64,000 nt of DNA. Origin: a virus. A program made the translations under genes and the position numbers. The DNA lies in the IMG/VR virus record IMGVR_UViG_3300026183_000827, one strand, 5' to 3'. The notes under the pieces were generated by a model. The model did no database searches. It was not told the origin of the DNA and saw only the letters and a program-made list of their open reading frames with translations. Position 1 is the stretch's first letter; every line of letters begins with the position of its first letter. Below are positions 2-48,324 of this stretch, in pieces.

Positions 2-517
2 GGACTGTGGTTATACACAGAAGAGGAAAGCCAACAATTGAAATACAAGCAGGACTTGAGTTTATACCGCTTAGGCAATCAGGACGATTTGGTTATCCCG
101 CCCAATGGTTATCAAATGACACAAGGTTTCCACACTTTCGACCATCCTGTGCGTTTAGATAGTTTTCAACCGCACGGACATCTGCGTATGAACGCAGCAA
201 GTTTAGAGATTTTTTATCCTGAAACTGGTAGAACAGAACCAGTAAGTCAAATCTCTAATTGGAGCGCAACCTGGCATCACAGTCATTTGTATGCTCCTGA
301 TGTAGCACCACTAATACCTGCGGGCGCAGTTATTATTCTCAAGCAATGGTATGACAACACTGCTGACAACAAAAACAATCCTGATCCCGATATGTGGGTA
401 ATGGGTGGTTCACGCACAGGCGATGAGATGACTCACGCTTGGCTTGCTATTACTCATTTAGATGAAGAAGGATACAACAAACTATTAGAGCAACGTAACA
501 TCACAGGAGATGATTAA
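2..517 (+). CDS. Copper type II (PHM/DBH-like) monooxygenase, C-terminal part (5' end lies outside the window)
   Basis: Frame is open from position 2. It has the CuM-type motif QPHGHLR and the C-terminal GDEM, and is paralogous to the C-terminal half of 878..2119. Confidence 0.75.
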   Translation, partial: GLWLYTEEESQQLKYKQDLSLYRLGNQDDLVIPPNGYQMTQGFHTFDHPVRLDSFQPHGHLRMNAASLEIFYPETGRTEPVSQISNWSATWHHSHLYAPDVAPLIPAGAVIILKQWYDNTADNKNNPDPDMWVMGGSRTGDEMTHAWLAITHLDEEGYNKLLEQRNITGDD

Positions 518-885
518 TGCCTACAGTAAAACAAGCAAGACAAGGTTTATGGGGAAGTGCAATAATATTTGTAGCACTTTTAATATTCCAATTGGTAGTA
601 TTATTAGGAGCAAGAACTCTATATGCACAAGAAGTGGATTTTAGTTCAGTAAAAGCAAAATGGAATACGTGTGCCGCTTGTCACGGTAACAAAGCACAAG
701 GCAAGCCAGGCTTTCCTGGTCTAAGTTTTCTTGAAGAAGATCATATTGTTGAAGCACTACAAGATTACAAAGCAGGAGTGTATCGTGGAGATATGAGCGG
801 TATTATGTTTGGACAAGCAGCAACACTAAGCGATGAAGAAATTATTTTGATGGCGAAATACATCAAGGAGATATCTAATGATTAA
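517..885 (+). CDS. Class I cytochrome c (c553/c4-like), exported or membrane-anchored
   Basis: Hydrophobic N-terminus, heme motif CAACH, candidate distal Met (GIM) and LSDEEI helix. Confidence 0.85.
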   Translation: MPTVKQARQGLWGSAIIFVALLIFQLVVLLGARTLYAQEVDFSSVKAKWNTCAACHGNKAQGKPGFPGLSFLEEDHIVEALQDYKAGVYRGDMSGIMFGQAATLSDEEIILMAKYIKEISND

Positions 886-2119
886 AATTTTACACACAAG
901 TTTTGTGGTGCTGTTGACAAGTGTACTAGGACTAGTAGCATTAGCAGCACGAGCACAAGACGTAGACTATGTACGTGATGTTGCACCTATTCTAATAGAG
1001 CAGTGTCAAATGTGCCACAGAGAAAATGGCATAGCACCGTGGGCAATGAGCAACTATCAAGTAGTACAGGCATTTGCTCCTGCAATCAAAGAAGCTATTG
1101 TATCAAAACGTATGCCACCTGGACAAATCAATCCCAAGTATAGAGACACTATCATCAATCACAGAACATTAAGTGATGATGAAATGAAAACTCTTGTAGA
1201 TTGGGTTGATGCAGGCGCACCAGTTGAAGGTGTAATAGATCCTTTAACACAAACAGTATACCCTGATTCAGAATGGGTACACGGTGAACCTGATATGATT
1301 GTTGAAGTACCTGCACAAGAAATACCTGCAGGGCCATCAGCAATACCATATCGTTATGTAGGAGTTGACCTAGGACTCACAGAAGATCGTTGGTTACGTG
1401 GTTCAGAGTTTTTACCTTCAGAACCTACTGTTATGCACCATATGTTAAACTCAGTGTCAGTGCCTGGTGAACGTAATATGAACTTGTTGGGTACACAAGG
1501 AGGCGAACAACAGAATATGGATTATGCTAGTATTAGTGCTTATGTTCCTGGCGGCGACCCTGACTACTATGATGAAAACACTGGCGGATTATTACGTGCA
1601 GGATCACAAGTAAACTTACAACTACATTACACACCAGACGGTACAGCACGTACTGACAAAGCACGAATTGGACTATACTTCCACGACGAAGGTGTAGTGC
1701 CAGAAGAAAGAATGGCAGGCGACTGTGCTTGTATATTCCCTAACACGTGGACACCTATTCCGCCATACGATCCTAACTTCAAACAAGAAGCTGATGTTGT
1801 ACTAAAGAATGATGTAATGTTGCATACATTTTTACCGCATATGCATTTCCGCGGTAAAGCAATGAGAGCAACAGCATATTATCCAGACGGTGAAGTAGAA
1901 GAACTTATTGATATTCCACGTTATGAATATGCTTGGCAACTTTCGTACACTTGGCGTGAACCTAAGTTTCTACCACAAGGTACGAGGTTACACGTAGAAG
2001 GATGGTTTGATAACTCAGCGGACAATCCAATGAATCCTGACCCAAGCAGAGAAGTACCTTGGGGACAGATGAGCGAGGATGAAATGTTCTTTGGAGCATT
2101 TACTTGGAAAAACCTATAA
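878..2119 (+). CDS. Secreted cytochrome c / copper type II (PHM-like) monooxygenase fusion
   Basis: Signal peptide ending ARA-Q; CQMCH heme motif plus MPP; CuH ligands HH (VMHHM) and LHY; CuM ligands PHMH and DEM. Confidence 0.8.
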   Translation: MIKILHTSFVVLLTSVLGLVALAARAQDVDYVRDVAPILIEQCQMCHRENGIAPWAMSNYQVVQAFAPAIKEAIVSKRMPPGQINPKYRDTIINHRTLSDDEMKTLVDWVDAGAPVEGVIDPLTQTVYPDSEWVHGEPDMIVEVPAQEIPAGPSAIPYRYVGVDLGLTEDRWLRGSEFLPSEPTVMHHMLNSVSVPGERNMNLLGTQGGEQQNMDYASISAYVPGGDPDYYDENTGGLLRAGSQVNLQLHYTPDGTARTDKARIGLYFHDEGVVPEERMAGDCACIFPNTWTPIPPYDPNFKQEADVVLKNDVMLHTFLPHMHFRGKAMRATAYYPDGEVEELIDIPRYEYAWQLSYTWREPKFLPQGTRLHVEGWFDNSADNPMNPDPSREVPWGQMSEDEMFFGAFTWKNL

Positions 2120-23469: not shown

Positions 23470-24380
23470 AAGAATTATGGGTAGAAAAGTATCGTCCTAA
23501 AACAGTAGATGGATATGTATTTAGAGATGAAGCACAAAAAAATCAAGTCAAAACATGGATCAAAGATAAAACTATTCCGCACTTGCTTTTTAGTGGCAAT
23601 GCTGGGATTGGTAAAACTACTCTTGCTAAGTTATTATTTAACGAGCTTGAAGTAAATGATCTAGACATTCTAGAGATTAATGCATCGCGGACAAACTCAG
23701 TAGATGATGTGCGTGATAAAATTGTAAACTTTGTACAAATGATCCCATTTGGGGACTTTAAGGTTGTATTACTAGATGAAGCAGATTACTTATCACCAAA
23801 CGCTCAAGCAGCTCTCCGTGGGGTTATGGAGGAGTATCATACTACTGCTCGTTTCATTCTTACTTGTAACTATCCAAATCGTGTTATACCCGCTTTGCAC
23901 AGTAGGTGTCAAGGTTTCCACATTGCTAAGATTGACCAAACTGAATTCACGGCTAGAGTTGCTGAAATTCTTATCAGCGAAGGTGTTACTCCTGATTTGG
24001 ATACGCTTGATACATACGTAAAAGCAACATATCCAGACTTGCGTAAGTGTATCAACACTGTACAAATGAATTCAGTTGACGGTGTGTTGAACAAACCCAA
24101 TGAAGGTGACACAGGCGAAAGCGACTGGAAACTTGATATGGTTGAGTTGTTTAAAGCAGGCAAAATTCAAGAAGCACGTAAGCTACTATGTGGTGCTATT
24201 CGTCCAGAAGAAATGGAAGAAGTGTATCGTTGGTTGTACGACAACATTACACTGTTTGGTGAAGAAGAAAAACAAGACCAAGCAGTACTAACAATCAAAC
24301 AAGGGATGGTTGATCACACACTAGTGGTTGACCCTGAGATTAACTTAGCGGCAACGCTTATTAGATTAGCGAGGTTATAG
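23466..24380 (+). CDS. Clamp loader ATPase subunit (T4 gp44 / RFC-like)
   Basis: LWVEKYRP, Walker [15 protein letters not shown] and SRC motifs. Confidence 0.95.
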
Positions 24381-24727
24381 TGACATATCTAGTAACAGAA
24401 AATTGTATAAAATGTAAACATACAGACTGTGTTGAAGTCTGTCCTGTAGACTGTTTTTACGAAGGTGAAAATTTTTTAGTAATTAATCCAAACGAATGCA
24501 TAGATTGCGGAGTATGTGTTCCAGAATGTCCGATTGATGCAATTGTAGCTGACCACGAGTTAGAAGAACCTGAGCGAATAAAATGGATCGAAATAAATGA
24601 AAAATATTCAGACATTTGGCCTGTAATTACAGAATCAAAAGGTTCACTACCAGATGCAGTTGATTGGGAAGATGTAGAAGGAAAACTAGAAATGTTGTCA
24701 CCGGAACCCGGAGAAGGAGACTTATAA
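24380..24727 (+). CDS. fdxA: 7Fe ferredoxin (FdxA-type)
   Basis: [18 protein letters not shown] and [12 protein letters not shown]. Confidence 0.93.
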
Positions 24728-33020: not shown

Positions 33021-33059
33021 GTAATAGTCCATGCGATAAGTAGTAGTATGGACTATTAC
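33021..33059 (+). repeat. Perfect 12-bp inverted repeat masking the dnaJ start codon, with a late promoter in the loop
   Basis: GTAATAGTCCAT (33021-32) pairs with ATGGACTATTAC (33048-59); CGATAAGTA lies at 33034-42. Confidence 0.8.
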
Positions 33060-33893: not shown

Positions 33894-36142
33894 TGGTTGA
33901 ACCAAGCAAAGAATTACAAATAGTTTTTGATAAAGCTATTAGAGATGCAAAAAATTTAAGACACGAATATGTAACACTAGAGCATTTAGTGTATGCAATT
34001 CTTTGTGAAGAAAAATTTTCTAATCTACTTACTGCATATGGTGCTAATATTGAGTATATTAAATCTAATATTGAACAGTATTTGCGCAACGATCTAGAAA
34101 ACATAAAAATTGATACAAAAAAATTCAAACCAAAAAAAACAAGCACTGTAGAAAGAGTATTGAATAGAGCTTTTACACAGACTCTTTTCGCTGGTAGAAC
34201 CACAATAGAATTAACTGATCTAATTTTAAGTGTTTTGCACGAGAAAAAAAGTATTTCGGTGTATTACTTAGAAAAAGGCGGCGTAGATAAGTCTTCTTTT
34301 GGAGAATTTTTAGACGACGAACAACTAATTGGTGCTGAAGAAGATGACGAATTATCTTCAGAAGCAAAACGTGCATTACGTGCATTTACTTCTAATCTTA
34401 ATGATCAAGTTAAAAAAGGAAAAGTAGATCCAATTATTGGACGCTCAGATGAACTAGAAAGTCTTGCACTTGCTCTTGGACGCCGTAATAAAAATAATGT
34501 ACTAATGGTAGGAGACCCTGGCGTAGGTAAAACTGCTATTGCAGAAGGTCTTGCTTACAAAATTGTAAACAACGAAGTTCCTGAGTTCTTAAAGGAATAT
34601 AAAGTATATAATCTAGATATTGGTAGTATGCTTGCTGGTTCAAAATATCGTGGTGATTTTGAAGAACGGTTTAAACTTGTTATACATGCACTAACTAAAC
34701 AAGGCAAAACTATTATGTTTGTCGACGAAGCACACATGATGATGGGTGCAGGTGCCGCTGGATCGAGTAATGCAAATGATATGGCAAACATGCTTAAACC
34801 TGCACTAACTAAAGGTGATTTAAAAGTAGTTGCGAGCACAACTTGGGAAGAATATCGCAAGTACTTTGAAAAGGATCGTGCGCTAATGCGTCGATTCCAG
34901 CGTGTAGTAATTGACGAACCGACAACAGAAAGTACAAAAGATATTTTACGTGGTTTGAAAAAATATTACGAAGATTATCACGGTACAGAAATTACAGATG
35001 ATGCAATTGATGCTGCTGTTAAATTAAGTGTAAAATATCAAACTGATAAAAAATTACCTGATAAAGCAATTGATCTAATTGATGTAGCATGTAGTAGATT
35101 TAAAGTTAATAATCAAAGTGAAAATATTATAGTAGGCGAAGCTGAAATACAATTTGAACTTGCAAAAATGTTAAAATTGCCAGCGGAACAAGTTGCTGAA
35201 AAAGAAACAGAAAACCTTGCTAATCTAGAAAACAATCTTAAAAAGGTTGTGTTTGGCCAAGATGACGCAATTGAATCAATTGTTGATAAAATACTTGTTA
35301 GTCAAGCAGGACTTAAACCAGATGATAAGCCTATTGGTGCGTTTGTGTTTATGGGCCCAACGGGCACAGGTAAAACTGAAACTGCTAAGGCACTTGCTAA
35401 AAATCTTGGGGTACAACTTGTACGTTTTGATATGTCAGAATACATGGAAAAACATTCTGTTGCTAAATTAATTGGTTCACCTCCAGGTTATGTAGGACAC
35501 GAAGAAAACGGTGGACTATTAATTACCAAATTACAAGAACATCCTAATTGTGTACTATTGTTAGACGAAATAGAAAAAGCACACCCCGACGTTTCGCAAA
35601 TTCTATTACAACTTATGGATAATGGTAAAGTTACAGGTTCGCAAGGCAAAGAAGCAGATGCTCGTAACTGTACTCTTATTCTTACAACTAACCTAGGTGC
35701 TGCCCAAGCAGAGAAAAACTCAATTGGGTTTGACAGCGAAGAAAGTTACGATTATGAAGATACAGAACTAAAGCGTTTCTTCGCTCCAGAATTCCGCAAC
35801 AGACTTGACGGTGTAATTACATTTGCTAAACTAAGCAAAGAAGTAATGATGAAAATTGTTGGTAAGTTCCTGCTTGAACTTAAGAACATGGTTGTTGATA
35901 AAAACATTTCTATTAAGATTACAGATGATGCACTTGATTATCTAGTAGACAAAGGATTTGATCCTAAAAATGGTGCCCGTCCATTACAACGTGTAATTGA
36001 CAAAGATATTAAACGTCCTTTATCACGCCAAATCTTGTTTGGTGATCTAAAGAACGGTGGCACAGTTACAGTTGATTTAAAGGATAATTCAATTGTTCTA
36101 CACACTGCGGAAAAAGAAGAACTTTTAAATGGACATACTTGA
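33893..36142 (+). CDS. clpA: ClpA-type AAA+ unfoldase
   Basis: N-domain HEYVTLEHL and two Walker A motifs (GDPGVGKT, GPTGTGKT); no ClpB M-domain; IGF loop. Confidence 0.93.
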   Translation: MVEPSKELQIVFDKAIRDAKNLRHEYVTLEHLVYAILCEEKFSNLLTAYGANIEYIKSNIEQYLRNDLENIKIDTKKFKPKKTSTVERVLNRAFTQTLFAGRTTIELTDLILSVLHEKKSISVYYLEKGGVDKSSFGEFLDDEQLIGAEEDDELSSEAKRALRAFTSNLNDQVKKGKVDPIIGRSDELESLALALGRRNKNNVLMVGDPGVGKTAIAEGLAYKIVNNEVPEFLKEYKVYNLDIGSMLAGSKYRGDFEERFKLVIHALTKQGKTIMFVDEAHMMMGAGAAGSSNANDMANMLKPALTKGDLKVVASTTWEEYRKYFEKDRALMRRFQRVVIDEPTTESTKDILRGLKKYYEDYHGTEITDDAIDAAVKLSVKYQTDKKLPDKAIDLIDVACSRFKVNNQSENIIVGEAEIQFELAKMLKLPAEQVAEKETENLANLENNLKKVVFGQDDAIESIVDKILVSQAGLKPDDKPIGAFVFMGPTGTGKTETAKALAKNLGVQLVRFDMSEYMEKHSVAKLIGSPPGYVGHEENGGLLITKLQEHPNCVLLLDEIEKAHPDVSQILLQLMDNGKVTGSQGKEADARNCTLILTTNLGAAQAEKNSIGFDSEESYDYEDTELKRFFAPEFRNRLDGVITFAKLSKEVMMKIVGKFLLELKNMVVDKNISIKITDDALDYLVDKGFDPKNGARPLQRVIDKDIKRPLSRQILFGDLKNGGTVTVDLKDNSIVLHTAEKEELLNGHT

Positions 36143-36845
36143 AACAAAAAAGTTATTTTATAACAAGTATGCCTATAAAATTGTAATCTATAATCGTTTA
36201 GCAAGCATATTTAGATCTGAGTTGCAACGTGGAAACAAACTATCCTTTGCAAGAGCAGAATTGGATCGTATGCATGCAGAATACGAAAATGGGTTTCCAA
36301 TAACAAAGCGTGTTTTTAGATCGGATACAATAATACCTACTGAAGATTTTTTTGATGCGCAAGATGTTTATAAAATCTTAAAAAAAACTTCTAACGAGTA
36401 TATGATTAGAATTGGTATTGGGAATGATCTAATCATATACTCTCATAGTAAAGAATTTTTATTATCTATAAGTAAAAAAGTGAGATCTACTAATATTAAG
36501 TTTTATGAACCACATGTTGATATTAAGGACTTTTTAGAGAAAAATAAAGATGTTGTTATAGTTAAAAATCAACCAAAATTTCCTATAAAAGTTATACTTG
36601 GTAGGAAAAAATCTGGTTCAATAGATTTAGCTAATTGGTTAAAATTAAATCATGATAAAAGCAAGGTCGGAAATAAAACCTTGTCTTATTTAGAAGAAAG
36701 TTCATATGTTGACGGTTTATACTTTTATGTGCGCGACGAAAAAGTATTACAGTTAGTTTATCTTATGTGTGGCGATAATATTAGAAAAATTGAAAAACTA
36801 GTTTGGCAACACGAAATAGATAAATATAAGTATGGCAGCGAATAG
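36129..36845 (+). CDS. Hypothetical protein
   Basis: 238-aa ORF overlapping both neighbours. Confidence 0.7.
   Translation: MDILETKKLFYNKYAYKIVIYNRLASIFRSELQRGNKLSFARAELDRMHAEYENGFPITKRVFRSDTIIPTEDFFDAQDVYKILKKTSNEYMIRIGIGNDLIIYSHSKEFLLSISKKVRSTNIKFYEPHVDIKDFLEKNKDVVIVKNQPKFPIKVILGRKKSGSIDLANWLKLNHDKSKVGNKTLSYLEESSYVDGLYFYVRDEKVLQLVYLMCGDNIRKIEKLVWQHEIDKYKYGSE
36819..36826 (+). promoter_or_regulatory. Late promoter GATAAATA, 5 nt before ATG 36832
   Basis: GATAAATA-TAAGT-ATG with no SD. Confidence 0.6.
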
Positions 36846-37176
36846 TGAAATAATTTTATCAGCACAAACACACCCTGGAGACAGCACGACAGAGGCTGTA
36901 ACAGGTGACAAATTCAAAGGTGACGGTTACTACGGTCGTAGTGACGGTCTTCATACCGTTCAATATACATATACAGGATTAACTGGAACAATTGTTATTG
37001 AAGCAACTCTAGCAATTGAGCCGGGAGATAGTGACTGGTTTTATGTTCATTCCTATGTTGCAGCGCAAGAGACTTCAAGTAAAATCCAAAGTATTACAGG
37101 CAATTACGTTTGGATTAGAGCAAAATTATACAACTGGACCGACGGTACAATCAATTCAATAGTATTAAATCATTAA
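36832..37176 (+). CDS. Hypothetical beta-rich phage protein
   Basis: Follows a late promoter; GNYVWIRA-type C-terminus. Confidence 0.7.
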   Translation: MAANSEIILSAQTHPGDSTTEAVTGDKFKGDGYYGRSDGLHTVQYTYTGLTGTIVIEATLAIEPGDSDWFYVHSYVAAQETSSKIQSITGNYVWIRAKLYNWTDGTINSIVLNH

Positions 37177-37185
37177 GGTAAAGAT

Positions 37186-37755
37186 ATGGAACACTTTGTA
37201 AGAATAGTAATGGAAAAACAAGAAGGTGCACAATTATTAGATGAAAGCATCTTTGTAGAACAAGAAATTTACGAAACTGAGCAAGGTGCTACAGTATACG
37301 AAATTGCACTTCCTCGCCAACTAGATGAAGAAGAAGCAGACGAGTATGCTAATCGTTTAGCAAACTATATGTTTGAACAAGGCTACGAAGACTTTGATAT
37401 TGAAATCTCAAACGAGATAGGCGAAGATATTACAGAAGAAACATACGACGGTGATGATTTCTTTTTAGAGTACGGTGTTATGTGGTTCAACGAAGATGAC
37501 GACGAATTAGATGAAGCAGAATATCAAGGACGTAAAGTTAAACTAGGCAAGCCAATGCGTGGTGATGTTAAGAAGTTTAAAGTGTACGTCCGTGACCCAA
37601 AGACTAAGAATGTTAAAAAAGTTAACTTTGGCGATCCTAACATGAAGATTAAAAAGTCTAACCCAGCACGTAGACGTTCATTCCGTGCAAGACACAACTG
37701 TGATAATCCAGGTCCACGTACAAAAGCACGTTACTGGTCATGTAGGAAGTGGTAA
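37186..37755 (+). CDS. Probable internal head protein (acidic N-terminus, basic C-terminal domain)
   Basis: LDE|AEYQGRKVKLGKP...FRARHNC...RYWSC. Confidence 0.6.
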   Translation: MEHFVRIVMEKQEGAQLLDESIFVEQEIYETEQGATVYEIALPRQLDEEEADEYANRLANYMFEQGYEDFDIEISNEIGEDITEETYDGDDFFLEYGVMWFNEDDDELDEAEYQGRKVKLGKPMRGDVKKFKVYVRDPKTKNVKKVNFGDPNMKIKKSNPARRRSFRARHNCDNPGPRTKARYWSCRKW

Positions 37756-37756
37756 C

Positions 37757-38077
37757 ATGCGTTTATTTGAATTTGAAAGAAAAGAAGTTCCATTTGACGT
37801 AGTCGATGATGTTGCAATATACATGCGTAATGATCCTATGATTTATCGTAAACAACTATTTCCTGCAATAATGCGTATGAAAGATTCTTATATGCAAGGT
37901 TCTGCGCCTGATGCTAACGAGTGTTTAGGTGAAGCTTGCGGCAATGCAATGGAATCATACTGTAGTAAATTTAAATTAGGTTCGCCTGAAAATGTTTTCA
38001 AACAAGACGACAAAGATGCACTAATACAAAAGTTATTTTCTGAAGAAATGAAAATGATCAAAGATGGAGCATACTGA
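37757..38077 (+). CDS. Hypothetical protein
   Basis: ATG 37757 follows the upstream stop; N-terminus MRLFE. Confidence 0.65.
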   Translation: MRLFEFERKEVPFDVVDDVAIYMRNDPMIYRKQLFPAIMRMKDSYMQGSAPDANECLGEACGNAMESYCSKFKLGSPENVFKQDDKDALIQKLFSEEMKMIKDGAY

Positions 38078-38793
38078 TGTTATTAAGAGAACTGTTCGAA
38101 GCACCGTCTAAAAAAGCAGTTCTTGCTTTTGGTAGGTTAAATCCTCCAACTATTGGTCATGCAAAATTAGTAGATACACTGAAATCGTATGAAGGTGATC
38201 ATTACCTTTTTCTTTCTCAAAGTCAAAAACCAAAAACAGATCCACTAGACTTTCCAACTAAAATAAAATTTGTAAAAAGTTTTTTTCCTGACATAAATGT
38301 TGGACATCAAAATGTTCGCACACCAGTTCAAGCACTAGAAATGCTACAAAATTTAGGATATACTGATATAATTTTTATTGCTGGTTCGGATAGAGTAGAT
38401 GGTTTTCAGAAACTGTTCGATACATACAATGGTCAACCAGACAAGTCTGGTAATATTCCATTTAGTTTTAAAACAATTAAGGTAGCAAGTGCAGGCGAGC
38501 GTGACCCAGATGCTGGTGATGTAAGTGGCATGAGTGCTAGTAAAATGAGAGCATTAGCAGCACAGGGCGAACTAGAAAGTTTCGCACAGGGTGTACCAGA
38601 TAAAAAACTAGCAAAAACGATGTACGATGCTGTACGTAAAGGTATGGGTATTAAAGATACTGAAACTGTAGAAGATGTTAGTCCAAAAGACGAGAAAAAG
38701 TTCCATAACGAATTAGACAAACTTGTTCACAAGTATTTTGGAGATTCTCCAGACGAGGAGAAGATGAAAAAGAAAATGAAAAAGGCTTACTAA
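38077..38793 (+). CDS. Cytidylyltransferase-like (HxGH-family) nucleotidyltransferase
   Basis: FGRLNPPTIGH, AGSDR and MSASKMR motifs. Confidence 0.85.
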   Translation: MLLRELFEAPSKKAVLAFGRLNPPTIGHAKLVDTLKSYEGDHYLFLSQSQKPKTDPLDFPTKIKFVKSFFPDINVGHQNVRTPVQALEMLQNLGYTDIIFIAGSDRVDGFQKLFDTYNGQPDKSGNIPFSFKTIKVASAGERDPDAGDVSGMSASKMRALAAQGELESFAQGVPDKKLAKTMYDAVRKGMGIKDTETVEDVSPKDEKKFHNELDKLVHKYFGDSPDEEKMKKKMKKAY

Positions 38794-39008
38794 TGGATGA
38801 ACTTGATTATATTAAAAAACTAGCAGGTATTAATGAGTTCAAAGGTTACACAGAATATACTCTTGAAGATATGAGTCAGACTGCAACTGACTTAAAGCAA
38901 ATAGAAAAAGATCGAGGTATTAAACCAGGTGACAAAGAATGGTTTGAATTATGGTTTAGTAAGCCATACATGACAGGACATACTTTTAGAGGACGTAAGA
39001 AAAAATGA
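38793..39008 (+). CDS. Hypothetical protein
   Basis: TAATG-coupled; KKLAGINE motif. Confidence 0.7.
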   Translation: MDELDYIKKLAGINEFKGYTEYTLEDMSQTATDLKQIEKDRGIKPGDKEWFELWFSKPYMTGHTFRGRKKK

Positions 39009-39700
39009 AGATAGCCGTTTTTGGCTGTTCTTGGACTTATGGTGTTCCAATTGAGTGGTCACAAAAAATTACTTCATCTAAGTATCAACACAATATTCCT
39101 AATAATGATTTTGTAAACTGGACTAGAGAATTAGGCAAATTAGATTCTAGTTTAGAAATTTATAATTATGCAGTACCTGGTACAAACATTGAATTTAGTT
39201 TAGGTATGCTTGAAAGATATTTAAAAAACCCATATTGTGATATTACAGTTTTTCAAGCGACTAGACCTTATAGATATACCTATTGGGAACAAAATTTTGA
39301 TGAAAAGTTACACTTTAAAAAGTTTGAAGAAAATGTATACCAATTTAGTGAAAGTTTATTAAACCATGTTACTATAGTCGATCATCACGAAGATAATAAT
39401 TCTATTTTGGACCTAATTAAACATACAGATTCTGACAGTAAATATGTAAAAAATTATTTTAAAAATACTAGTTACGAAATGTTTGAAAATACATATAGAG
39501 CAGTTTTAGAATATGTAAATCGTAATACTGACATATGCTTTGCACACGAGTCTAATCAATATATAACAAATATAGAAGATATATTAGGCAACGATACTTT
39601 TAATAATTATTGTTGCGACATAGGAAAACATTTTGGACACACTGGCGCAAAATGGCAAGCCAAATGGTTATTAGATAAAATAAATACGTATAGAGGATAA
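39005..39700 (+). CDS. SGNH-like protein
   Basis: VFGCSWTYG block I, NYAVPG, and C-terminal DIGKHF. Confidence 0.6.
   Translation: MKIAVFGCSWTYGVPIEWSQKITSSKYQHNIPNNDFVNWTRELGKLDSSLEIYNYAVPGTNIEFSLGMLERYLKNPYCDITVFQATRPYRYTYWEQNFDEKLHFKKFEENVYQFSESLLNHVTIVDHHEDNNSILDLIKHTDSDSKYVKNYFKNTSYEMFENTYRAVLEYVNRNTDICFAHESNQYITNIEDILGNDTFNNYCCDIGKHFGHTGAKWQAKWLLDKINTYRG
39679..39686 (+). promoter_or_regulatory. Late promoter AATAAATA inside the upstream CDS end
   Basis: Followed by a GAGGA RBS. Confidence 0.5.
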
Positions 39701-39704
39701 TAAC

Positions 39705-39950
39705 ATGAGCTTAAAAACTTGGTGGCAGCGTATAACACGAGAAGAATATGAACTTATTATTACTGTTCCTGGCGAAGTAACAATTCATGCTGACGGTGGA
39801 CGTACCGAAAAAAAGTCTCAACAAATATACCATGCAAAAAAGTTAATTAAAACTACTCCTAAACATTTTGTGTTTATAGATATGAACGGCAAACGTAATG
39901 AAATTAAATTTTTAGATCCTGTAGTATTTCACGTAGTAAAGATTTGGTAA
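39705..39950 (+). CDS. Hypothetical protein
   Basis: GAGGA RBS. Confidence 0.7.
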   Translation: MSLKTWWQRITREEYELIITVPGEVTIHADGGRTEKKSQQIYHAKKLIKTTPKHFVFIDMNGKRNEIKFLDPVVFHVVKIW

Positions 39951-39951
39951 T

Positions 39952-42171
39952 ATGAAGTGGCGCGACATAAAAGAAGATGGTAGAATAGTCAAAGGTGTTA
40001 ACACTACTGTTGACGTGGGCACTGATGAGATCAAAAAGCAGGCAGCAAAATTTGGATTTAAGGTAGACAAGGACGGACGTCCACAAAATCATCCAACTAA
40101 AATTAAAGGTAAATCAACTAATGTATTGTTTAATCTAGGATTAGCAGAAAGTGTTGCTATTAAGTTTGAACGTACAGACGAGTATGACATACTCCATATT
40201 AAAGAAAAAGGTAAAAACCGTGTAGAAGTACGTGGCAAAAAAGGATACGAAAGCGGCAACTACGATCCTAAAGACAAGTTACACCGTGTATTAGATAAAC
40301 TAGGTAAGGCTGCTAATATAAGTGAACTTATGAACGGAGAAACTGTTGTCCTTAATCCTAAACATCCAGACGGTCCTCGTGCTATCAAAACAGTAACATC
40401 TGAATGTCCTAGGACCAAAGCATCTAGTTGTCAATGCGAAAGTGTTAACAAAGTAACAGAAGCACAAGAAACTGTAACAGCAGTATGTGAATTATATCCT
40501 AATGACAATGTTGAAGGGACAATCCTATTTAAGCAACAACCTAATAAACCTACATTAATAATTGGAGAAATCAAAGGATTATCTCCGGGCAAGCATGGTT
40601 TTCATATACACGAATTCGGCGATTTAAGTAAAGGTTGCGAAAGTGCAGGTGGACACTACAACCCAGATAGAATAGATCATGGAGATTTATCTAAAGGTCA
40701 TGTTGGTGATTTAGGTAATATTACAGCAGACGAGAACGGAATAGCAGAAATCCGTATAGTTGCTAAACGAGTAGACTTATTAGGTGAAAGAAGTGTTGTC
40801 GGCAGGTCTGTTGTAGTGCATAGTGATGTTGATGATCTAGGCAGAGGCGACAACGAAGAAAGTTTAAAAACCGGTAATGCAGGCGATAGATTAGCTTGTG
40901 GAGTAATCGTTATGAAAGAAACAGTTAATGAAACAACAGTATATTCTAGAGACGAATTACCACAAATTAAAAACAAACAATTATCAAAACTAAAACATAC
41001 TATAGAAACAGTTGCGCTTGCAGATATAATACCTGTGCAAGAAGAACGTATTGTAGAAAATTTTAAACGTCAAGTTGATAATATTGTTGCTGGCAAGTAT
41101 AAACCAATTATTGTTGATTATAATAATAAAATTGTAAATGGCCATCATAGATACACTGCACTGGAAATGCTAGGCTATGAAAGTATAGAAGTTGCACGTT
41201 TGCCTTGGAGTTTGGAAACAATATTAGAAAAGTGGAGTCAAAAATATAAGCGTAGTATTAATTGCAACAATCCTAAAGGCTTTTCGCAGAAAGCACATTG
41301 TCAAGGACGTAAGAAAAAAGAAAGTATAGAAGAAGGTAAATTAAAATCTAAATCATATAAAAAAGCAGTTAAAGCAGCAGCAATGCAAGGTAAACGTCCT
41401 AAGAAAAAACTTAAAACAAAATTCAGTGAAAACTTTGCTAAAGCAGCAAAAGAAGATTTACTTGCATACAAGAGAATTATAGGACTTGCTAAAAAGGCTT
41501 ATGAAACTAATGAAATAGATCCTTACTTTTATGATGCAGTTAAAATCACTTTTGATATGAACTTGTATAAAAAAAATCCTAAACTTTTAAGCACACTTTT
41601 AAAAGTAGGCAGAAACCTAGCCAAAGAAGATTGGCCGGAAGTTGTTCAAGATATTAAGAAAAATACAGGCATTGATTTAGAAGCACATATTAGTGAAAAC
41701 TTTGCTGAAGGAAATTTACTTGCTAATCCACAGAATAGTGTGTTAGTAAAAAAAGAATATCCTTACGATTGGTATAAAATTGGCACACAGATTGCTAATC
41801 TTGACAATGTATCTCAACATATAAAGGATAGAAATAGACAAGATATCTATATTCAATTCTTTGGTGGAGAAAAAGAAAAAGAATTTATGATGAAAAAGTT
41901 AGGTGCTATTGGTTACGATGTTCAAGACGCTGACGGTTATCGTGATATGCACTTTGATGAGAATACTGAAGGTAGTTACATCCTTAGAATTAGAGAAAAC
42001 TTTGCTGATGGTAAAACAGATAGTAAAAGCAGACCAGGGCGTGTAAAGCGTTCAGGTGCTAGTTGTAATGGCAGTGTAACAGCATTACGCAAACGTGCTA
42101 AGAATGCAAGTGGTGAGAAGGCTAAGATGTACCACTGGTGTGCTAATATGAAAAGCGGAAGGAAAAAGTAA
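39952..42171 (+). CDS. Multidomain polyprotein containing Cu/Zn superoxide dismutase and ParB/Srx-like domains
   Basis: SOD: HGFHIHEFGD, GCESAGGHYNP, HVGDLGN, GRSVVVH, GNAGDRLACG. ParB-like: PIIVD...IVNGHHR. Confidence 0.88.
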   Translation: MKWRDIKEDGRIVKGVNTTVDVGTDEIKKQAAKFGFKVDKDGRPQNHPTKIKGKSTNVLFNLGLAESVAIKFERTDEYDILHIKEKGKNRVEVRGKKGYESGNYDPKDKLHRVLDKLGKAANISELMNGETVVLNPKHPDGPRAIKTVTSECPRTKASSCQCESVNKVTEAQETVTAVCELYPNDNVEGTILFKQQPNKPTLIIGEIKGLSPGKHGFHIHEFGDLSKGCESAGGHYNPDRIDHGDLSKGHVGDLGNITADENGIAEIRIVAKRVDLLGERSVVGRSVVVHSDVDDLGRGDNEESLKTGNAGDRLACGVIVMKETVNETTVYSRDELPQIKNKQLSKLKHTIETVALADIIPVQEERIVENFKRQVDNIVAGKYKPIIVDYNNKIVNGHHRYTALEMLGYESIEVARLPWSLETILEKWSQKYKRSINCNNPKGFSQKAHCQGRKKKESIEEGKLKSKSYKKAVKAAAMQGKRPKKKLKTKFSENFAKAAKEDLLAYKRIIGLAKKAYETNEIDPYFYDAVKITFDMNLYKKNPKLLSTLLKVGRNLAKEDWPEVVQDIKKNTGIDLEAHISENFAEGNLLANPQNSVLVKKEYPYDWYKIGTQIANLDNVSQHIKDRNRQDIYIQFFGGEKEKEFMMKKLGAIGYDVQDADGYRDMHFDENTEGSYILRIRENFADGKTDSKSRPGRVKRSGASCNGSVTALRKRAKNASGEKAKMYHWCANMKSGRKK
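41428..42006 (+). repeat. Three exact in-frame copies of GAAAACTTTGCT (ENFA)
   Basis: Copies at 41428-39, 41695-706 and 41995-42006. Confidence 0.85.
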
Positions 42172-42278
42172 TGGATTGCAAATGCGAAAATTGCGGGTGT
42201 GAACATCACTGCGGAACAGAATGCAAAGATTGTAAAAACGATGTTTGCCAAAACTGCAAGTGTGAACACTGTAAATGA
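42171..42278 (+). CDS. Metallothionein-like Cys-rich peptide (35 aa), not in ORF track
   Basis: MDCKCENCGCEHHCGTECKDCKNDVCQNCKCEHCK: 11 Cys, 3 His, no aromatic residues; TAATG-coupled to the SOD gene. Confidence 0.75.
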   Translation: MDCKCENCGCEHHCGTECKDCKNDVCQNCKCEHCK

Positions 42279-42382
42279 TAGATATAGAATATTACGTTAA
42301 AAAATTAAAAGATCACGAAACACAACGGCTAAGTACTAACGAACGTAATAATTTTTGGAGACAATATAATGAAAATAAATGA
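42275..42382 (+). CDS. Small hypothetical protein (35 aa), not in ORF track
   Basis: ATGA-coupled; MIDIEYYVKKLKDH... Confidence 0.5.
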   Translation: MIDIEYYVKKLKDHETQRLSTNERNNFWRQYNENK

Positions 42383-42575
42383 ATTTGCAACAGCAGGCGC
42401 TACTAGTGCAGGTAATGTTGCATCAGTTGCTAGTGTTCCAGGTGCTAAACGTAAAGTAAAAAAAGATAAAAATGGAATACCTAAAGCACCACAAGCTCTA
42501 AATCCGGACGGAACTGCTAAAAACGCACAAGACATAGACAAAAATTTAATGGGCGGCAAAACTATTAAAAGGTGA
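42369..42575 (+). CDS. Small probable head-associated protein
   Basis: GGAG RBS; MKINE|FATAGATSAGNVA. Confidence 0.65.
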   Translation: MKINEFATAGATSAGNVASVASVPGAKRKVKKDKNGIPKAPQALNPDGTAKNAQDIDKNLMGGKTIKR

Positions 42576-42578
42576 TTA

Positions 42579-43472
42579 GTGACAAATTTATTAATAACCT
42601 TTGGTTGCAGTTGGACATGGGGTGTTGGAATTTTTTATGAAGATGGTATGTCTTCAAAAGAGTATTTTGACCATCCTGTTGTTTATAAGCCTGAAGGAAC
42701 TTTCAGACAAATACTATCAGAAAAATGGAAATGTAAAAATTTAAACTTTTCTACCGGTGCTAGTAGTAATCAAAAACAATTTAGATATGCCAAACATTTT
42801 TTTGCAAGCGATGAATTTCTTAAATTAAAAAAAGAATATAAAAACATCACAGTTTTATGGGGCATTACATCTACTGCTAGAAATGAAATATGGGATTTTA
42901 AAAATAAAGATTTACAAAATTTAATCTTTACTAATCCAGGTAATAATCAATATACTTTTACTGTAAAAGAATGGACTAGATATTTCTATAATCACGAAAA
43001 CGAAGTTTTTACACTTGCAAAAGATATGAATTTTTTTAACAGTTATTTTGAATCATTAGGTATAAAAAATTATTGGTTTGATACTTTTAATCATCACGAT
43101 TATAGTAAAGAACATCCCGCTTTAAAATTTCAAGCAACAAATGAAAAACATCAAAATGAAGATAATTGGCACAAGCTAGAAAATGATGTTATTTTAAACG
43201 AAATAAAATTAAAAAGTTTAAAATCATCGAATAACATAAAAAATATGTTATTTGATAATCAACAACCTAGAGATTTGTGCAGTTTATTGTGTAAAGAATA
43301 TAATATAGATTATATAGATAATAATTATCATACTAGTTCATTTTCGGAAGATAGTAATAGAATAAAGTTTTTAGTCAATAATAATATACTTAATCCACAC
43401 AGCTATCATCCTACAAAATTAGGTCATCAAACTATTGCTAATTTAATACATAAAGAAATAAATACATTATAA
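42579..43472 (+). CDS. SGNH-like protein
   Basis: TFGCSWTWG, GASSN and C-terminal YHPTKLGH. Confidence 0.65.
   Translation: MTNLLITFGCSWTWGVGIFYEDGMSSKEYFDHPVVYKPEGTFRQILSEKWKCKNLNFSTGASSNQKQFRYAKHFFASDEFLKLKKEYKNITVLWGITSTARNEIWDFKNKDLQNLIFTNPGNNQYTFTVKEWTRYFYNHENEVFTLAKDMNFFNSYFESLGIKNYWFDTFNHHDYSKEHPALKFQATNEKHQNEDNWHKLENDVILNEIKLKSLKSSNNIKNMLFDNQQPRDLCSLLCKEYNIDYIDNNYHTSSFSEDSNRIKFLVNNNILNPHSYHPTKLGHQTIANLIHKEINTL
43457..43464 (+). promoter_or_regulatory. Late promoter AATAAATA inside the upstream CDS end
   Basis: Followed by an AGGAG RBS. Confidence 0.5.
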
Positions 43473-43484
43473 CAGGAGTTTAAT

Positions 43485-44315
43485 ATGTCTTTGCAATTCA
43501 AACATGGTTCTTATACCACTAAAAACTTTGACATGTGTGCAGATGCTGTAAAAGAATTTAACAAGGCTGCAAAAGATGAAAAAGTTGATAAACAAAAAAT
43601 GCTTAAGGCTGCTAGAGCAGTTGACAAATACTTAGGTATGGAAAAGAAAGCAAAAGAAAAGGGTAGTGCAACAAATGCCCAATTAGATTCATTTATGAAT
43701 GCTGTAGAAGATGCAAAGACAGCAATCTCAGATGCAGGATTAAAGGGGCACACTTATCACAAGTGGCATGTAGCAGATATGAAAAAATACGCAAAAGAAG
43801 AAGTTAAAGAAGGTTTAGGCGACATGGCGCACATGGCTGAAAAAGACCATGAGGTGCAAATGGCTCGTGCAGACCTGTACAAAATAGCAAAATATTCAAT
43901 TAAATTACACGAAATGTTAAAAGGTGTTTCAGAAGCCGAAGGCTTAGAAGGTTGGGTACAATCAAAAATTACCAAAGCAGCAGACTATTTAGGTTCAGTA
44001 TATCATCATTTAGATTATGAACAAGCAACTGGTGAGCTAGGTGAAGGCAAGTCGCCTCACAAGAAAGGTACTAAAGCATACAAGAAACATATGGCTGCAA
44101 TGCATGCTGAAAGTGCAAACGATCCATATAAGGCACAACTACGTGCTAAGTTAGCTGAAAAAACTAACGAAAGAAGCCTAACCAAAGGTGAAGAAGGCAA
44201 GCGTGAAAAGTATGTCAAGGGCATGAAAAAAGCCAAAGGCGACTTTAAAAAACGCTACGGTAAAGACGCAGAAGCAGTAATGTACGCAACAGCAACTAAG
44301 ATGGCCAAGAAATAA
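43485..44315 (+). CDS. Probable internal head protein (modular, Lys/Ala-rich)
   Basis: Segments separated by xxE sites (VKE|G, LGE|G, TNE|R). Confidence 0.6.
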   Translation: MSLQFKHGSYTTKNFDMCADAVKEFNKAAKDEKVDKQKMLKAARAVDKYLGMEKKAKEKGSATNAQLDSFMNAVEDAKTAISDAGLKGHTYHKWHVADMKKYAKEEVKEGLGDMAHMAEKDHEVQMARADLYKIAKYSIKLHEMLKGVSEAEGLEGWVQSKITKAADYLGSVYHHLDYEQATGELGEGKSPHKKGTKAYKKHMAAMHAESANDPYKAQLRAKLAEKTNERSLTKGEEGKREKYVKGMKKAKGDFKKRYGKDAEAVMYATATKMAKK

Positions 44316-44977
44316 TGGATTACCATAAACTACAACAACAACTATTTGAAATGGATCCTAGTGATCCTAGAGAAGATTTAGCAAAATTGCAACAGGCTGC
44401 ACAAGGCGGCGGAATTGATAATGTTGCTCCTATTAAAAATTATCTAGAAGAAAGTGTTGTAGTCGAAGAAGGATCAATACCATTAGGCATAGACAGTATT
44501 GCAGATTTTGCTGCATTAGCAGGTGTTAAACTAGAAGAAGGCGAACGCTGGGATAGATTTAAAGCAGCAGCAAAACATGGTGTAGATAATTATAACACTG
44601 TCAAAGCATTACGACCAAATCTAGATAAAAATAAAATTAAAAAACCAGGCGAAGAACCAGCAGATAGTACTGATAAAAAGAAGTTTTCTACTAAAAAACC
44701 AAATATAAATCAAGATAAAGTAGAAGCACTTGAGGCTAGAGTTGCATACTTAGAAAGTGTTATAGAAACTTTAATAGAAGCAGACGATCGTAAAATTAAA
44801 CCACGTGATCCTAACGCACAAACACTAAACGATTTACGTAAGAGTGGTGCAATGGGCGCACATAAAGATAAAAAGAAACTAGCAAAACAAGGCTACTCAA
44901 AACACAAAGGCAAATCACAATATGAATCTATCAAAGACGAGCTATGGGCACGTTTAAATGAATTTAATAAATCTTAG
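44315..44977 (+). CDS. Hypothetical, probable head protein
   Basis: LAGV-x-LEE motif; charged composition. Confidence 0.6.
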   Translation: MDYHKLQQQLFEMDPSDPREDLAKLQQAAQGGGIDNVAPIKNYLEESVVVEEGSIPLGIDSIADFAALAGVKLEEGERWDRFKAAAKHGVDNYNTVKALRPNLDKNKIKKPGEEPADSTDKKKFSTKKPNINQDKVEALEARVAYLESVIETLIEADDRKIKPRDPNAQTLNDLRKSGAMGAHKDKKKLAKQGYSKHKGKSQYESIKDELWARLNEFNKS

Positions 44978-45590
44978 ACCAAAATTTACTGACTCACCTT
45001 ATCTAACAAACCCAATCCAGCAACTAGACGCAGAAACATTACCCTTACGTGACTTTGATAAAGACGGTTACGAAGTTCCTGCACCTTTAGAACTAGCATA
45101 TTATCACACAAACAATGTAATTATGAATACTGAAATACAGTATCATATTGCGCCTGTACAAGAATGGTTCACAGATACTGAAAACAGTGAACTCGGCTTA
45201 GTATTAGATCACTGCATGATACTAACACGCTATGCCCTTGCAGGTGAAGCAAGAGAACAATTAGAAAAAGTAGCAAAGAATCGTCCTATTGTAAACAAAC
45301 TATTAAGTATTAAACCTAAATACGGTATAGATTTTTCACTTGACTATGTAACACATGATGTTATAATGGAAGTAATACATATAGAGCAGGACTTTACTAC
45401 TCTAGAAGAAGCAAACGCTGCAAAAGAACGACTAGAACACATAATTGATACTACAGATTGGTATCAAGGTGTTATAGATCTACAAAGCAGAAAACACGAA
45501 TGGGAAAATTTGTCAAGCGATGATCACTCAGACTACAAAGCACAATTTTTCGGTTGGCACAGAGCGTTTGACAACAAAAAAGTATTTTAA
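44958..45590 (+). CDS. Hypothetical protein
   Basis: 210-aa ORF. Confidence 0.7.
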   Translation: MNLINLRPKFTDSPYLTNPIQQLDAETLPLRDFDKDGYEVPAPLELAYYHTNNVIMNTEIQYHIAPVQEWFTDTENSELGLVLDHCMILTRYALAGEAREQLEKVAKNRPIVNKLLSIKPKYGIDFSLDYVTHDVIMEVIHIEQDFTTLEEANAAKERLEHIIDTTDWYQGVIDLQSRKHEWENLSSDDHSDYKAQFFGWHRAFDNKKVF

Positions 45591-45593
45591 TTT

Positions 45594-46574
45594 TTGGAAC
45601 CTAATTTGAGCGTACCTGATCTAGAAAGAGCAGTCGTTGAAGTGTTTGGTGGCTGTAATTATAAGTGTCAAATGTGTCCACAGACTACCGGAAGAGGTAA
45701 AGAGTGGACACGGAAGATGCCAATAGATATGTTTATTAATATATTAGACCAACTTCCTGGTAAACCTGTTATTAACTTAGAAGGGTCAGGTGAGCCTACT
45801 ATGGCAAAAGACTTGCCTAATTATATTGAAGAATGTACTAAGCGAGGATTTCCTAGCTTTATGTACAGCAACGGTAGTTTTTTTAGTGGTCATTTTATGC
45901 AAGAGTGTATTGATGCAGGCTTAAGATTTGCTAGATTTAGTTGTATAGGTTATAACAAAGACAAGTATAAACAATGGATGGCCGTAGATAACTTTGAGTT
46001 GTTAAAAACAAACATAATAAAAGCCAAAGAATACATCAAGGAAACTAATAGTAAATGTGTAGTTAGTAGTTATCATCTAATATTAGATAATAATCAAGTT
46101 GACTATGAAATCGATCAATATAGAAATAATTTTATTGGCCCTACAGGTACAATAGGTTATATATGGAAAATGCACAACTGGAGCGGAAACTATCAACCTT
46201 TATATCTACGTGATCCTAGTAAGCGTAGAACTTGTGGCCGGCCATTTGCTCCTGAAATTACAATACGTAGTGGAGGTAACGGAGGATTAAAAGGTGCAGT
46301 TACGCCTTGCTGTCAAACAATGGGTCCTCCAAATGAAACTTTAAGTGTACTAGGTCATGTACAAAATCAAACCATAGAAGAAATATGGTATGGCGACGAA
46401 TACAATAAACTTCGCAAAGCACATGAAATGAAAGATTTTGATAGTATTGATTATTGTAAAAATTGTGACTTTTTATACGATGATCCAGAAGTACTTGTTT
46501 GGTCAAATGATAAACAAGCAAGCACAGATTACATGCTTGGAACAAAATTTAGTCTAAAAGAGTACATGAATTAA
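45594..46574 (+). CDS. Radical SAM / SPASM domain protein
   Basis: CNYKCQMC, GSGEP, and SPASM-like CGRP...PCC...CKNC. Confidence 0.9.
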   Translation: MEPNLSVPDLERAVVEVFGGCNYKCQMCPQTTGRGKEWTRKMPIDMFINILDQLPGKPVINLEGSGEPTMAKDLPNYIEECTKRGFPSFMYSNGSFFSGHFMQECIDAGLRFARFSCIGYNKDKYKQWMAVDNFELLKTNIIKAKEYIKETNSKCVVSSYHLILDNNQVDYEIDQYRNNFIGPTGTIGYIWKMHNWSGNYQPLYLRDPSKRRTCGRPFAPEITIRSGGNGGLKGAVTPCCQTMGPPNETLSVLGHVQNQTIEEIWYGDEYNKLRKAHEMKDFDSIDYCKNCDFLYDDPEVLVWSNDKQASTDYMLGTKFSLKEYMN

Positions 46575-46575
46575 C

Positions 46576-47193
46576 ATGAGAACTCTTGAATTTTTTGAAA
46601 CAGATATAGATACTATAAACAAACATTTCTATTCTCGCAGCCCTTCTAATATTTTAGAACACTGTGTAAATAAAGTATTTGCTAATGGTAAAATAGTAGA
46701 TACTAAGACTCGTAAATATAGAGAAATTAATCATATAAATGCTTTTTATGAATTGCAAAAAGAATTATCTTCTGGTAAAAAACTAGAAGATCCTCTTTGT
46801 TTAAGTTATTGGAGTACTAATGTACATCAACTTACTGTCGGAAAAGCAAGAATGGCACTAACTGAAGTATATAAACTTCCTGTTGTGCTAATTGTAGACA
46901 ATTTTTCCGGCAAGAAATTTGCAAAAAAATTTAATTTAAAAAGAATAGAATACGACACAACTAATTTTATAAGATGGGAAGCAAGTATTCAACATTTTAA
47001 AAATAAACCTTGGTTTAGAAATTTAGAAAAGCAATACAGAGATATAAATCTAATACAGTTTTTAGCTGATAGAGATAATTATCAAAGACCTACAAGCACT
47101 ATATTTCATTTAGATAATGATAAAGTGTATTGTGAAAATGAAAAATTTTTAGAAAAGAAAAATAACAAATGGTTTTTTTCAAATTTAACTTGA
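46576..47193 (+). CDS. Hypothetical protein (AT-rich)
   Basis: 205-aa ORF. Confidence 0.65.
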   Translation: MRTLEFFETDIDTINKHFYSRSPSNILEHCVNKVFANGKIVDTKTRKYREINHINAFYELQKELSSGKKLEDPLCLSYWSTNVHQLTVGKARMALTEVYKLPVVLIVDNFSGKKFAKKFNLKRIEYDTTNFIRWEASIQHFKNKPWFRNLEKQYRDINLIQFLADRDNYQRPTSTIFHLDNDKVYCENEKFLEKKNNKWFFSNLT

Positions 47194-47218
47194 CAAAAAG
47201 AAAAACACATTGTATACT
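47190..47218 (+). promoter_or_regulatory. Sigma70-type promoter
   Basis: TTGACA-17 nt-TATACT. Confidence 0.8.
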
Positions 47219-47249
47219 AATATAAAATATATACCATAAGGAGATAAAA

Positions 47250-47510
47250 ATGGGATCTCGTACCTACGGCGCTGAAGAAAAAGCAAAACTAGAACGACTA
47301 GTAAAAGAAGGTGTAACTGTATTACAAGAAGTAGAAGATTTAAACACAGGCTTAAAAGAAACTGTAAAGGCTGTTGCAGAAGAACTTGATATTAAACCTA
47401 GTCTTATTAACAAGGCAATTAAAATTGCACAGAAACGTGACTGGGATTCACACGCAGATGCGTATGACGATCTCGAAACTCTTATCACTACGTTAGGGTA
47501 TGATAAATGA
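47250..47510 (+). CDS. dsDNA-binding protein (T4 DsbA/GapR-like)
   Basis: Helical 86-aa protein with LKETVKAVAEELDIKPSLINKAIK; AAGGAG RBS. Confidence 0.6.
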   Translation: MGSRTYGAEEKAKLERLVKEGVTVLQEVEDLNTGLKETVKAVAEELDIKPSLINKAIKIAQKRDWDSHADAYDDLETLITTLGYDK

Positions 47511-48109: not shown

Positions 48110-48324
48110 TGCAAAAGCCTTATCAATGGTTAGCTTGGTTTAGTACAACAGCATTGTTATCAGCAGCTCTGTTAGCCGCTTTCAATGTCTACCCTTTGTA
48201 TATATACGCATTTATTGTTAGTAATAGTCTATGGACACTAATAGGTATTTTGTGGAAAGAAAAAAGTTTAGTCGTAATGAATACAGGACTAACTATAATA
48301 TATGTAGCAGGATTAGTGCTATAA
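48109..48324 (+). CDS. Small membrane protein
   Basis: TAATG-coupled; 2-3 hydrophobic helices. Confidence 0.7.
   Translation: MQKPYQWLAWFSTTALLSAALLAAFNVYPLYIYAFIVSNSLWTLIGILWKEKSLVVMNTGLTIIYVAGLVL

Follow-up and report, generated by a model that had tools for sequence, protein, structure and literature searches.

A short Cys- and His-rich gene conserved in a minority of aquatic jumbo phages encodes a candidate metallothionein-like protein

The described proteins that come closest to the one considered here are the alpha-type domain of vertebrate metallothioneins (M(II)4Cys11) and the bacterial metallothioneins SmtA and BmtA (PF02069; Zn4Cys9His2), and further points of comparison are offered by the CCHC zinc knuckles (zf-CCHC, PF00098; HIV-1 NCp7 and Air2) and by the precursors of the SCIFF/ranthipeptide type. 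Here we describe a 35-codon gene (the mini-gene), found in a 64,000-nucleotide stretch of viral DNA (the window) taken from IMG/VR record IMGVR_UViG_3300026183_000827, and the cysteine- and histidine-rich mini-protein that it is predicted to encode. The full record is 126 kb long and 34% complete by CheckV, and the whole genome is therefore probably that of a jumbo phage.

Like the vertebrate alpha-type domain, which spans ~30-35 residues, the mini-protein has 11 Cys in CxC/CxxC arrays, conserved Lys residues between Cys, no possible hydrophobic core and, in its window copy, no aromatic residues; unlike that domain, with which it shows no sequence relationship, it carries three conserved His, a knuckle spacing in its N-terminal part and an invariant N-D-V/I, and it is restricted to phages. 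With SmtA and BmtA it shares a prokaryotic setting and, by prediction, mixed Cys/His ligation and a likely preference for zinc, and the members of its family that have Cys at position 10 also possess a similar N-terminal C-x-C-x2-C-x-C array. It differs from these proteins in length (35 versus about 55 residues) and in number of ligands (14 versus 11), lacks the aromatic residues and the zinc-finger-like beta-hairpin/helix core of SmtA, and gives no match to the corresponding hidden Markov model at an E-value of 10. The zf-CCHC spacing C5-x2-C8-x4-H13-x4-C18 recurs exactly, but ten further ligands are interleaved with it, the base-stacking aromatics of that family are missing from the acidic mini-protein, the matches in the PDB reach E about 1 only and Pfam returns none. 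As in SCIFF/ranthipeptide loci, a short Cys-rich peptide lies in the window within 3.4 kb of a gene for a radical S-adenosylmethionine (rSAM) enzyme with a SPASM domain, yet this linkage is not conserved, no family model matches and there is no leader peptide. In the literature we found no description of a phage-specific metallothionein family, and metallothionein-type auxiliary genes in viromes have received passing mentions only (PMC13317609, PMC12917443). The mini-protein family thus appears to be undescribed and to stand outside every described metallothionein family, while being metallothionein-like in its predicted chemistry.

Judged by its conservation, the 35-codon open reading frame (ORF) is a genuine, separately translated gene that selection maintains in some related aquatic jumbo phages, a minority with a scattered distribution. 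Searched with phmmer, a set of 1.84 billion representative proteins yielded two clusters with 74-76% identity to the mini-protein, and a profile search of 5.8 billion proteins returned 16 clusters (as clustered at 90% identity), none with a name beyond 'hypothetical protein'; gene callers used in other projects have also called the gene. On 68 IMG/VR contigs there was a match to a degenerate DNA pattern covering the C-terminal half and on 57 to an independent pattern for the N-terminal half, and because 52 contigs are common to both sets the conservation of each half is not a sampling artefact. Homologues were detected on 73 IMG/VR viral contigs in all. When substitutions were pooled over 41 distinct core DNA sequences, the ratio of nonsynonymous to synonymous polymorphism (pN/pS) was 0.25 in frame (pN 0.21; pS 0.84, near saturation), as against 1.0 and 0.8 in the remaining two frames, and codons at invariant residues alternate freely among these cores (TGT/TGC, CAT/CAC, AAT/AAC). 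The number of distinct cores, the TGT/TGC interchange and a low pN/pS confined to the coding frame together rule out a chance ORF. Almost every copy, moreover, has a Shine-Dalgarno sequence (AGGAG, GGAGG or AAGGA) 5-9 nt ahead of its ATG. Contigs from four metatranscriptome runs match the conserved basic module that precedes the ORF and genes that follow it but do not include 42171..42278, and so provide no evidence either way on transcription.

The distribution of the family is viral as far as can be seen. A scan of 185,579 prokaryotic species, each represented by a single genome, with the same DNA pattern yielded no genuine copy, and the family is therefore phage-only within the reach of these searches; the sole prokaryotic match, in Marinomonas, lies antisense inside a chemotaxis receptor gene and was rejected as a chance match. 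A tblastn search of 50,697 phage records with the mini-protein returned no match, a result that carries little weight, as the low-complexity filter probably masks the query. Marine metagenomes, Tara Oceans among them, are the main source of homologues, and the DNA of the window itself recurs in estuary, freshwater and 'soil' metagenome runs. The B-family DNA polymerase of the record shares 50% identity with its counterparts in the jumbo myoviruses Sinorhizobium phage Phosso and Agrobacterium phage Atu_ph07.

In every lineage the mini-gene lies between the ClpB/DnaJ genes and the DNA polymerase gene, usually 1.4-6 kb upstream of the latter, and its immediate neighbors differ between lineages. 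This fixed place could be taken for that of a core gene, a reading that is ruled out by relatives picked by DNA polymerase similarity alone: the mini-gene is present in 7 of the 92 with at least 3 kb of upstream sequence, in 6 of the 45 with at least 6.5 kb, and in one of the 12 that span the full ClpB-to-polymerase interval. These counts mark the mini-gene as an accessory cassette that occurs sporadically, in about 8-13% of relatives, within a hypervariable island of uncultured aquatic jumbo myoviruses.

The translated sequence has Cys at positions 3, 5, 8, 10, 14, 18, 21, 26, 29, 31 and 34, His at positions 12, 13 and 33, no F, W or Y, and an acidic composition (5 Lys versus 7 Asp/Glu). Cys accounts for 31% of this ORF compared to 0.9% in the long ORFs of the window; the mini-gene is single copy in the 126-kb record, on whose coding strand no further frame is truly rich in Cys except that of a ferredoxin. 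Its ATG (42171-42173) shares an A with the TAA (42169-42171) of the upstream gene, which encodes a 739-residue protein, and its TGA (42276-42278) overlaps a further ATG at 42275 (Table 1). The ORF that begins there is putative, overlaps both of its neighbors and has tblastn matches only in two contigs that are 99% twins of the window (L002 and L003). An earlier note on this DNA had proposed an unannotated gene of 35 codons with 11 Cys, 3 His, no aromatics and overlaps at both ends, and the sequence reads exactly so; the conservation and selection described above, together with the lack of any family match, bear out its status as an unannotated gene. That note also took the composition to be that of a metallothionein. 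The composition is indeed metallothionein-like (11 Cys in 35 residues), but membership in a described metallothionein family finds no support in Pfam or NCBIfam.

Table 1. Features at and around the mini-gene, in positions of the window
Feature	Position	Strand	Basis and remarks
35-codon gene for the Cys11His3 mini-protein	42171..42278 (stop codon included)	+	ORF translation, homologues, in-frame purifying selection
Shine-Dalgarno-like AAGGA	42159..42163	+	Read from the sequence; 7 nt before the mini-gene ATG, within the end of the upstream gene
TAATG junction, 1-base overlap of the stop of the 739-residue protein gene and the mini-gene start	42169..42173	+	Sequence
739-residue mosaic protein	39952..42171	+	Cu/Zn superoxide dismutase (residues 187-319), ParB-like (about 324-450) and basic two-Cys modules; Pfam, PHROGs; context only
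Next 35-codon ORF (putative), ATG overlapping the mini-gene TGA	42275..42382	+	ORF reading; context only

The high-Cys pattern is kept in about 45 distinct homologues, with strict spacing and almost no insertions or deletions. C5, C8, H13, C14, C18, C21, N23, D24, C26, C29, C31 and C34 are invariant in the alignment, C3 and K4 are nearly so, and position 25 is V or I; W or Y occurs in some homologues, either in a C-terminal tail or where the core is variable. Position 10 is Cys in 25 and His in 16 of 41 sequences, position 12 is His in 23 and Cys in 18, and all four combinations of the two positions occur, while position 33 is His or, on two contigs found via the N-terminal pattern (L244 and L245), Cys. 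The number of Cys in the family thereby ranges from 10 to 12. Since these three positions exchange Cys for His and for nothing else, they would be metal ligands and not disulfide partners, which argues for metal ligation by the mini-protein. In reduced variants from close relatives, C3, position 12 and H33/C34 are lost together, and this suggests that they form one site bridging both ends of the protein; the reduced variants L172 and L236 have one residue more between H13 and the last Cys. All four residues of the zinc-knuckle set C5/C8/H13/C18 are invariant. A search of PDB sequences with the family profile brought up only retroviral nucleocapsid (NCp7-type) knuckles, at a non-significant E of about 1, and because the mini-protein is acidic and lacks aromatics we take the knuckle spacing as a guide to one metal site and not as a sign of membership.

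Searches with sequence models and with a predicted structure did not connect the mini-protein to any named family. Pfam gave no match at E up to 10 for the window copy or for a homologue from another contig (L067), NCBIfam none for any of 46 family members, and PHROGs none even at permissive thresholds. An AlphaFold model built on a 46-sequence alignment has a pLDDT of 73.5 and no secondary structure, as would be expected of a metal-dependent fold; with this model, Foldseek against the PDB and VIA-align wide retrieved no similar solved fold, and the best score in the ESM Atlas, 0.83, was to unnamed clusters and carries no information.

On this basis we favor, with moderate confidence, the reading that the mini-protein is a phage-specific, metallothionein-like zinc-thiolate-cluster protein whose accessory metal-binding role would not depend on the superoxide dismutase (SOD) encoded next to it. 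Its extreme ligand density and its sporadic, auxiliary-gene-like distribution favor such a role in metal handling, and it has the traits by which metallothioneins are recognized in practice: small size, ~30% Cys in CxC/CxxC arrays and, in the window copy, no aromatics. Having no hydrophobic core, the protein could fold only around metal ions. Its 14 ligands (11 Cys and 3 His) could provide either three tetrahedral sites with spares or a thiolate-bridged cluster of ~4 M(II), the latter modelled on the metallothionein alpha-domain or on bacterial SmtA, and bridging thiolates or spare ligands are to be expected because 14 ligands in 35 residues cannot all fill separate tetrahedral sites. In the N-terminal half the knuckle set would be interleaved with C3, position 10, position 12 and C14, and the C-terminal half would contribute C21, C26, C29, C31, H33 and C34. 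Zn(II) would be the likeliest metal in vivo, since His ligands are present, and binding of Cu(I) or Cd(II) is also foreseen. The likeliest role would be the uptake or buffering of zinc or soft metals in the infected cell, without involvement of the adjacent SOD. We infer metal binding, its stoichiometry, the identity of the metal and the physiological role alike from the pattern of residues. A bolder version, which we put forward tentatively, would make the family a virus-specific metallothionein family whose His-containing 35-mers each bind ~4 ions, and which acts as an exchangeable cassette capturing or re-routing the zinc or copper pool of the host during infection, with related Cys cassettes in mosaic proteins of the same island.

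Several observations weigh against a metal-handling role. None of the known metallothionein models matches the mini-protein; the invariant non-ligand residues K4, N23, D24 and V/I25 suit a zinc-stabilized binding module equally well or better; one subfamily has a conserved C-terminal tail that ends in W-x-W-Q-D-S-G-I-E-L-G-F; natural read-through fusions join the mini-protein to an upstream basic protein; and other Cys cassettes are embedded within larger island proteins. All but the first of these are what would be expected if the metal were purely structural and the mini-protein acted as a docking or inhibitor module that binds a phage or host partner, being one of several Cys-rich cassettes shuffled within the island, and the strict spacing with its near lack of indels also fits this alternative. 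The acidic tail with its aromatic end resembles a docking peptide and is unique to the mini-protein family, and the loss of a single stop codon is enough to produce the fusions. We nonetheless consider a docking module, the strongest of the alternatives, rather unlikely. Ligand residues make up 40% of the mini-protein, a higher density than in known structural zinc modules and one that reaches the range of metallothioneins; the tail is absent from most members; presence in ~10% of relatives fits an accessory gene whose value depends on the environment; and no partner can be identified, since the flanking genes differ between lineages.

The tailed subfamily (L095, L102, L119, L124, L128 and L131; P0015 and P0017) carries a C-terminal extension of 15-25 residues, the end of which occurs in no other ORF of the retrieved loci and may be a docking peptide. 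In one lineage (L091:9584-10108) the mini-gene is in frame with an upstream gene for a 135-residue basic protein; a single TAG, itself part of the Shine-Dalgarno site (TAGGAG), stands between the two, and where CAG takes the place of this TAG a natural fusion protein results (P0029; P0035, a cluster of 27 members). The second type of cassette packs 8 Cys and 2 His into about 28 residues, begins with H-C-S-D-K-C-C-G, and is found in many close relatives at L165:1831-1944, L174:2683-2796, L182:6682-6795 and about 28 more loci, within larger proteins that are homologues of the products of the window genes at 42369 and 43485; the window versions of these proteins are without it. Kinship between this cassette and the 35-residue family was considered and is not detectable (hhalign probability 3.9%).

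The earlier note had cast the mini-protein in a different role, as a Cu/Zn buffer or metallochaperone for the adjacent SOD and perhaps for copper oxygenases, as part of a copper-handling system of the phage. A Cu/Zn SOD domain is indeed encoded by the upstream gene (Pfam Sod_Cu, E 1.5e-45, residues 187-319 of the 739-residue protein), the mini-gene follows that gene directly with overlapping stop and start codons, the window contains a cytochrome c, and another lineage has an Fe/Mn SOD gene 3.8 kb upstream of its mini-gene. Coupling of the two genes, by contrast, did not hold up. Of 80 loci retrieved with the 739-residue protein as query, 73 contain a Cu/Zn SOD, and the mini-gene accompanies it in only two of these, both 99% twins of the window, leaving 71 of the 73 without it. 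Conversely, among 80 mini-gene loci a Cu/Zn SOD is present in the same two twin contigs and absent from 78; five have an Fe/Mn SOD gene 3.7-3.8 kb upstream and the rest have no SOD within reach. Long contigs agree in both directions: a Sod_Cu search of five mini-gene contigs of 74-146 kb gave no match, and the family profile detected three positive controls but no mini-gene in four SOD contigs of 109-237 kb. Cys conservation across viral contigs, which that note had proposed to check along with SOD linkage, is borne out among the homologues, whereas the linkage is confined to two of 73 SOD loci.

The SOD module is itself missing from homologues of the 739-residue protein in close relatives and is thus a lineage-specific insertion into a mosaic protein. 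Nor does the overlap of start and stop codons speak for a link to SOD, because such packing is normal in these phages; in other lineages the mini-gene is preceded by different genes, at a gap of -4 to +29 nt. An Fe/Mn SOD, moreover, requires neither Cu nor Zn. As for the wider copper system, the cytochrome c gene at 517..885 is confirmed by Pfam, but it lies 40 kb from the mini-gene, and the ORFs that flank it (2..517 and 878..2119), the supposed copper monooxygenases, have no Pfam match. Taken together, the loci indicate that the mini-gene is not a dedicated or conserved partner of the neighboring SOD, and a chaperone for that enzyme is improbable. The notion of a phage copper system made up of SOD, metallothionein and oxygenases has no basis beyond adjacency in one lineage and ought not to be carried forward.

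Where the Fe/Mn SOD gene is found, it can lie directly upstream of a gene for an SOD-less homologue of the 739-residue protein (L091:6198-6743 and L092:6278-6823). Depending on the lineage, SODs of two unrelated types are thus encoded at about the same point of the island, the Cu/Zn SOD of the window being inserted inside the 739-residue protein.

A mini iron-sulfur (Fe-S) protein, in which the Cys would hold one or two clusters for electron transfer or redox sensing, is very improbable. It would account for the high Cys density and would suit a phage that encodes other redox proteins, namely a 2x[4Fe-4S] ferredoxin (24380..24727), the cytochrome c and a radical SAM enzyme, but the mini-protein has no CxxCxxCxxxCP-type motif and matches no ferredoxin or HiPIP model, and its three positions at which His exchanges with Cys are typical of zinc sites.

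Still less probable is a ribosomally synthesized and post-translationally modified peptide (RiPP), that is, a SCIFF/ranthipeptide-type precursor on which the rSAM-SPASM enzyme encoded at 45594..46574, 3.4 kb downstream, would act as maturase. Pfam confirms the radical SAM and SPASM assignment and precursors of the SCIFF type are likewise short and Cys-rich; among mini-gene loci, however, the window and its twins alone have the rSAM gene, which also occurs once without the mini-gene, and the fully covered mini-gene-to-polymerase intervals of three mini-gene contigs (L067, L084 and L087) contain no rSAM gene. The mini-protein lacks a leader/core architecture and any match to SCIFF or other NCBIfam models, and the enzyme falls under every curated NCBIfam cut-off. 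Its best partial NCBIfam matches are to metalloenzyme maturases, and it is found in the immediate lineage of the window only. The precursor idea is weak because the rSAM gene is both confined to this lineage and generic.

Least probable of all is a metal-free, disulfide-knotted peptide that is secreted or carried by the virion: many Cys in a short peptide can give knottin-like folds, but a number of Cys that is odd (11) and that Cys/His exchange shifts between 10 and 12, a His for Cys at three positions that a disulfide would not tolerate, and the lack of a signal peptide, which places synthesis in the reducing cytoplasm, all stand against it.

The island that surrounds the mini-gene (36129-48300 in the window; L164-L319 in relatives) is hypervariable, its gene content differing greatly between phages whose best-matching polymerase segments are 86-99% identical to the query polymerase. 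Its proteins are mosaics of short, highly charged modules in varying order; those of the 739-residue protein (N-terminal, ParB-like and C-terminal) are among them, as are homologues of the genes at 42369 and 43485. Ahead of the island (33048-36142) stand side by side genes for a DnaJ with a J domain and C-terminal domain and for a full-length ClpB-type disaggregase; both are conserved across the clade, and ClpB is 68-83% identical. Many island proteins begin with a short leader that ends in a hydrophobic residue, any residue and Glu, for example M-K-W-R-D-I-K-E or M-K-I-S-E-L-L-E (39952-39975 and 42369-42389 in the window; L197:1467 and L174:2659 in relatives). Such leaders resemble the capsid-targeting/prohead-protease signal of T4, and the mini-protein has none. 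A search of the 126-kb record for a T4-type prohead protease (PF03420) gave no match, but the control genomes gave none either, which deprives this negative of weight.

Genes as short as the mini-gene are mostly missed by annotation, and the one described here belongs to an unnamed, apparently phage-only family with a ligand density equal to that of any metallothionein. If several ions are bound, the mini-protein would be a minimal and easily synthesized model of a mixed Cys/His cluster, and this would suggest that some large aquatic phages adjust the metal economy of their hosts. Were the more far-reaching version also true, with ~4 ions in each 35-mer, these proteins would be among the smallest His-containing metallothioneins, and the phages that carry them would be manipulating host metal economy by means of an exchangeable cassette.

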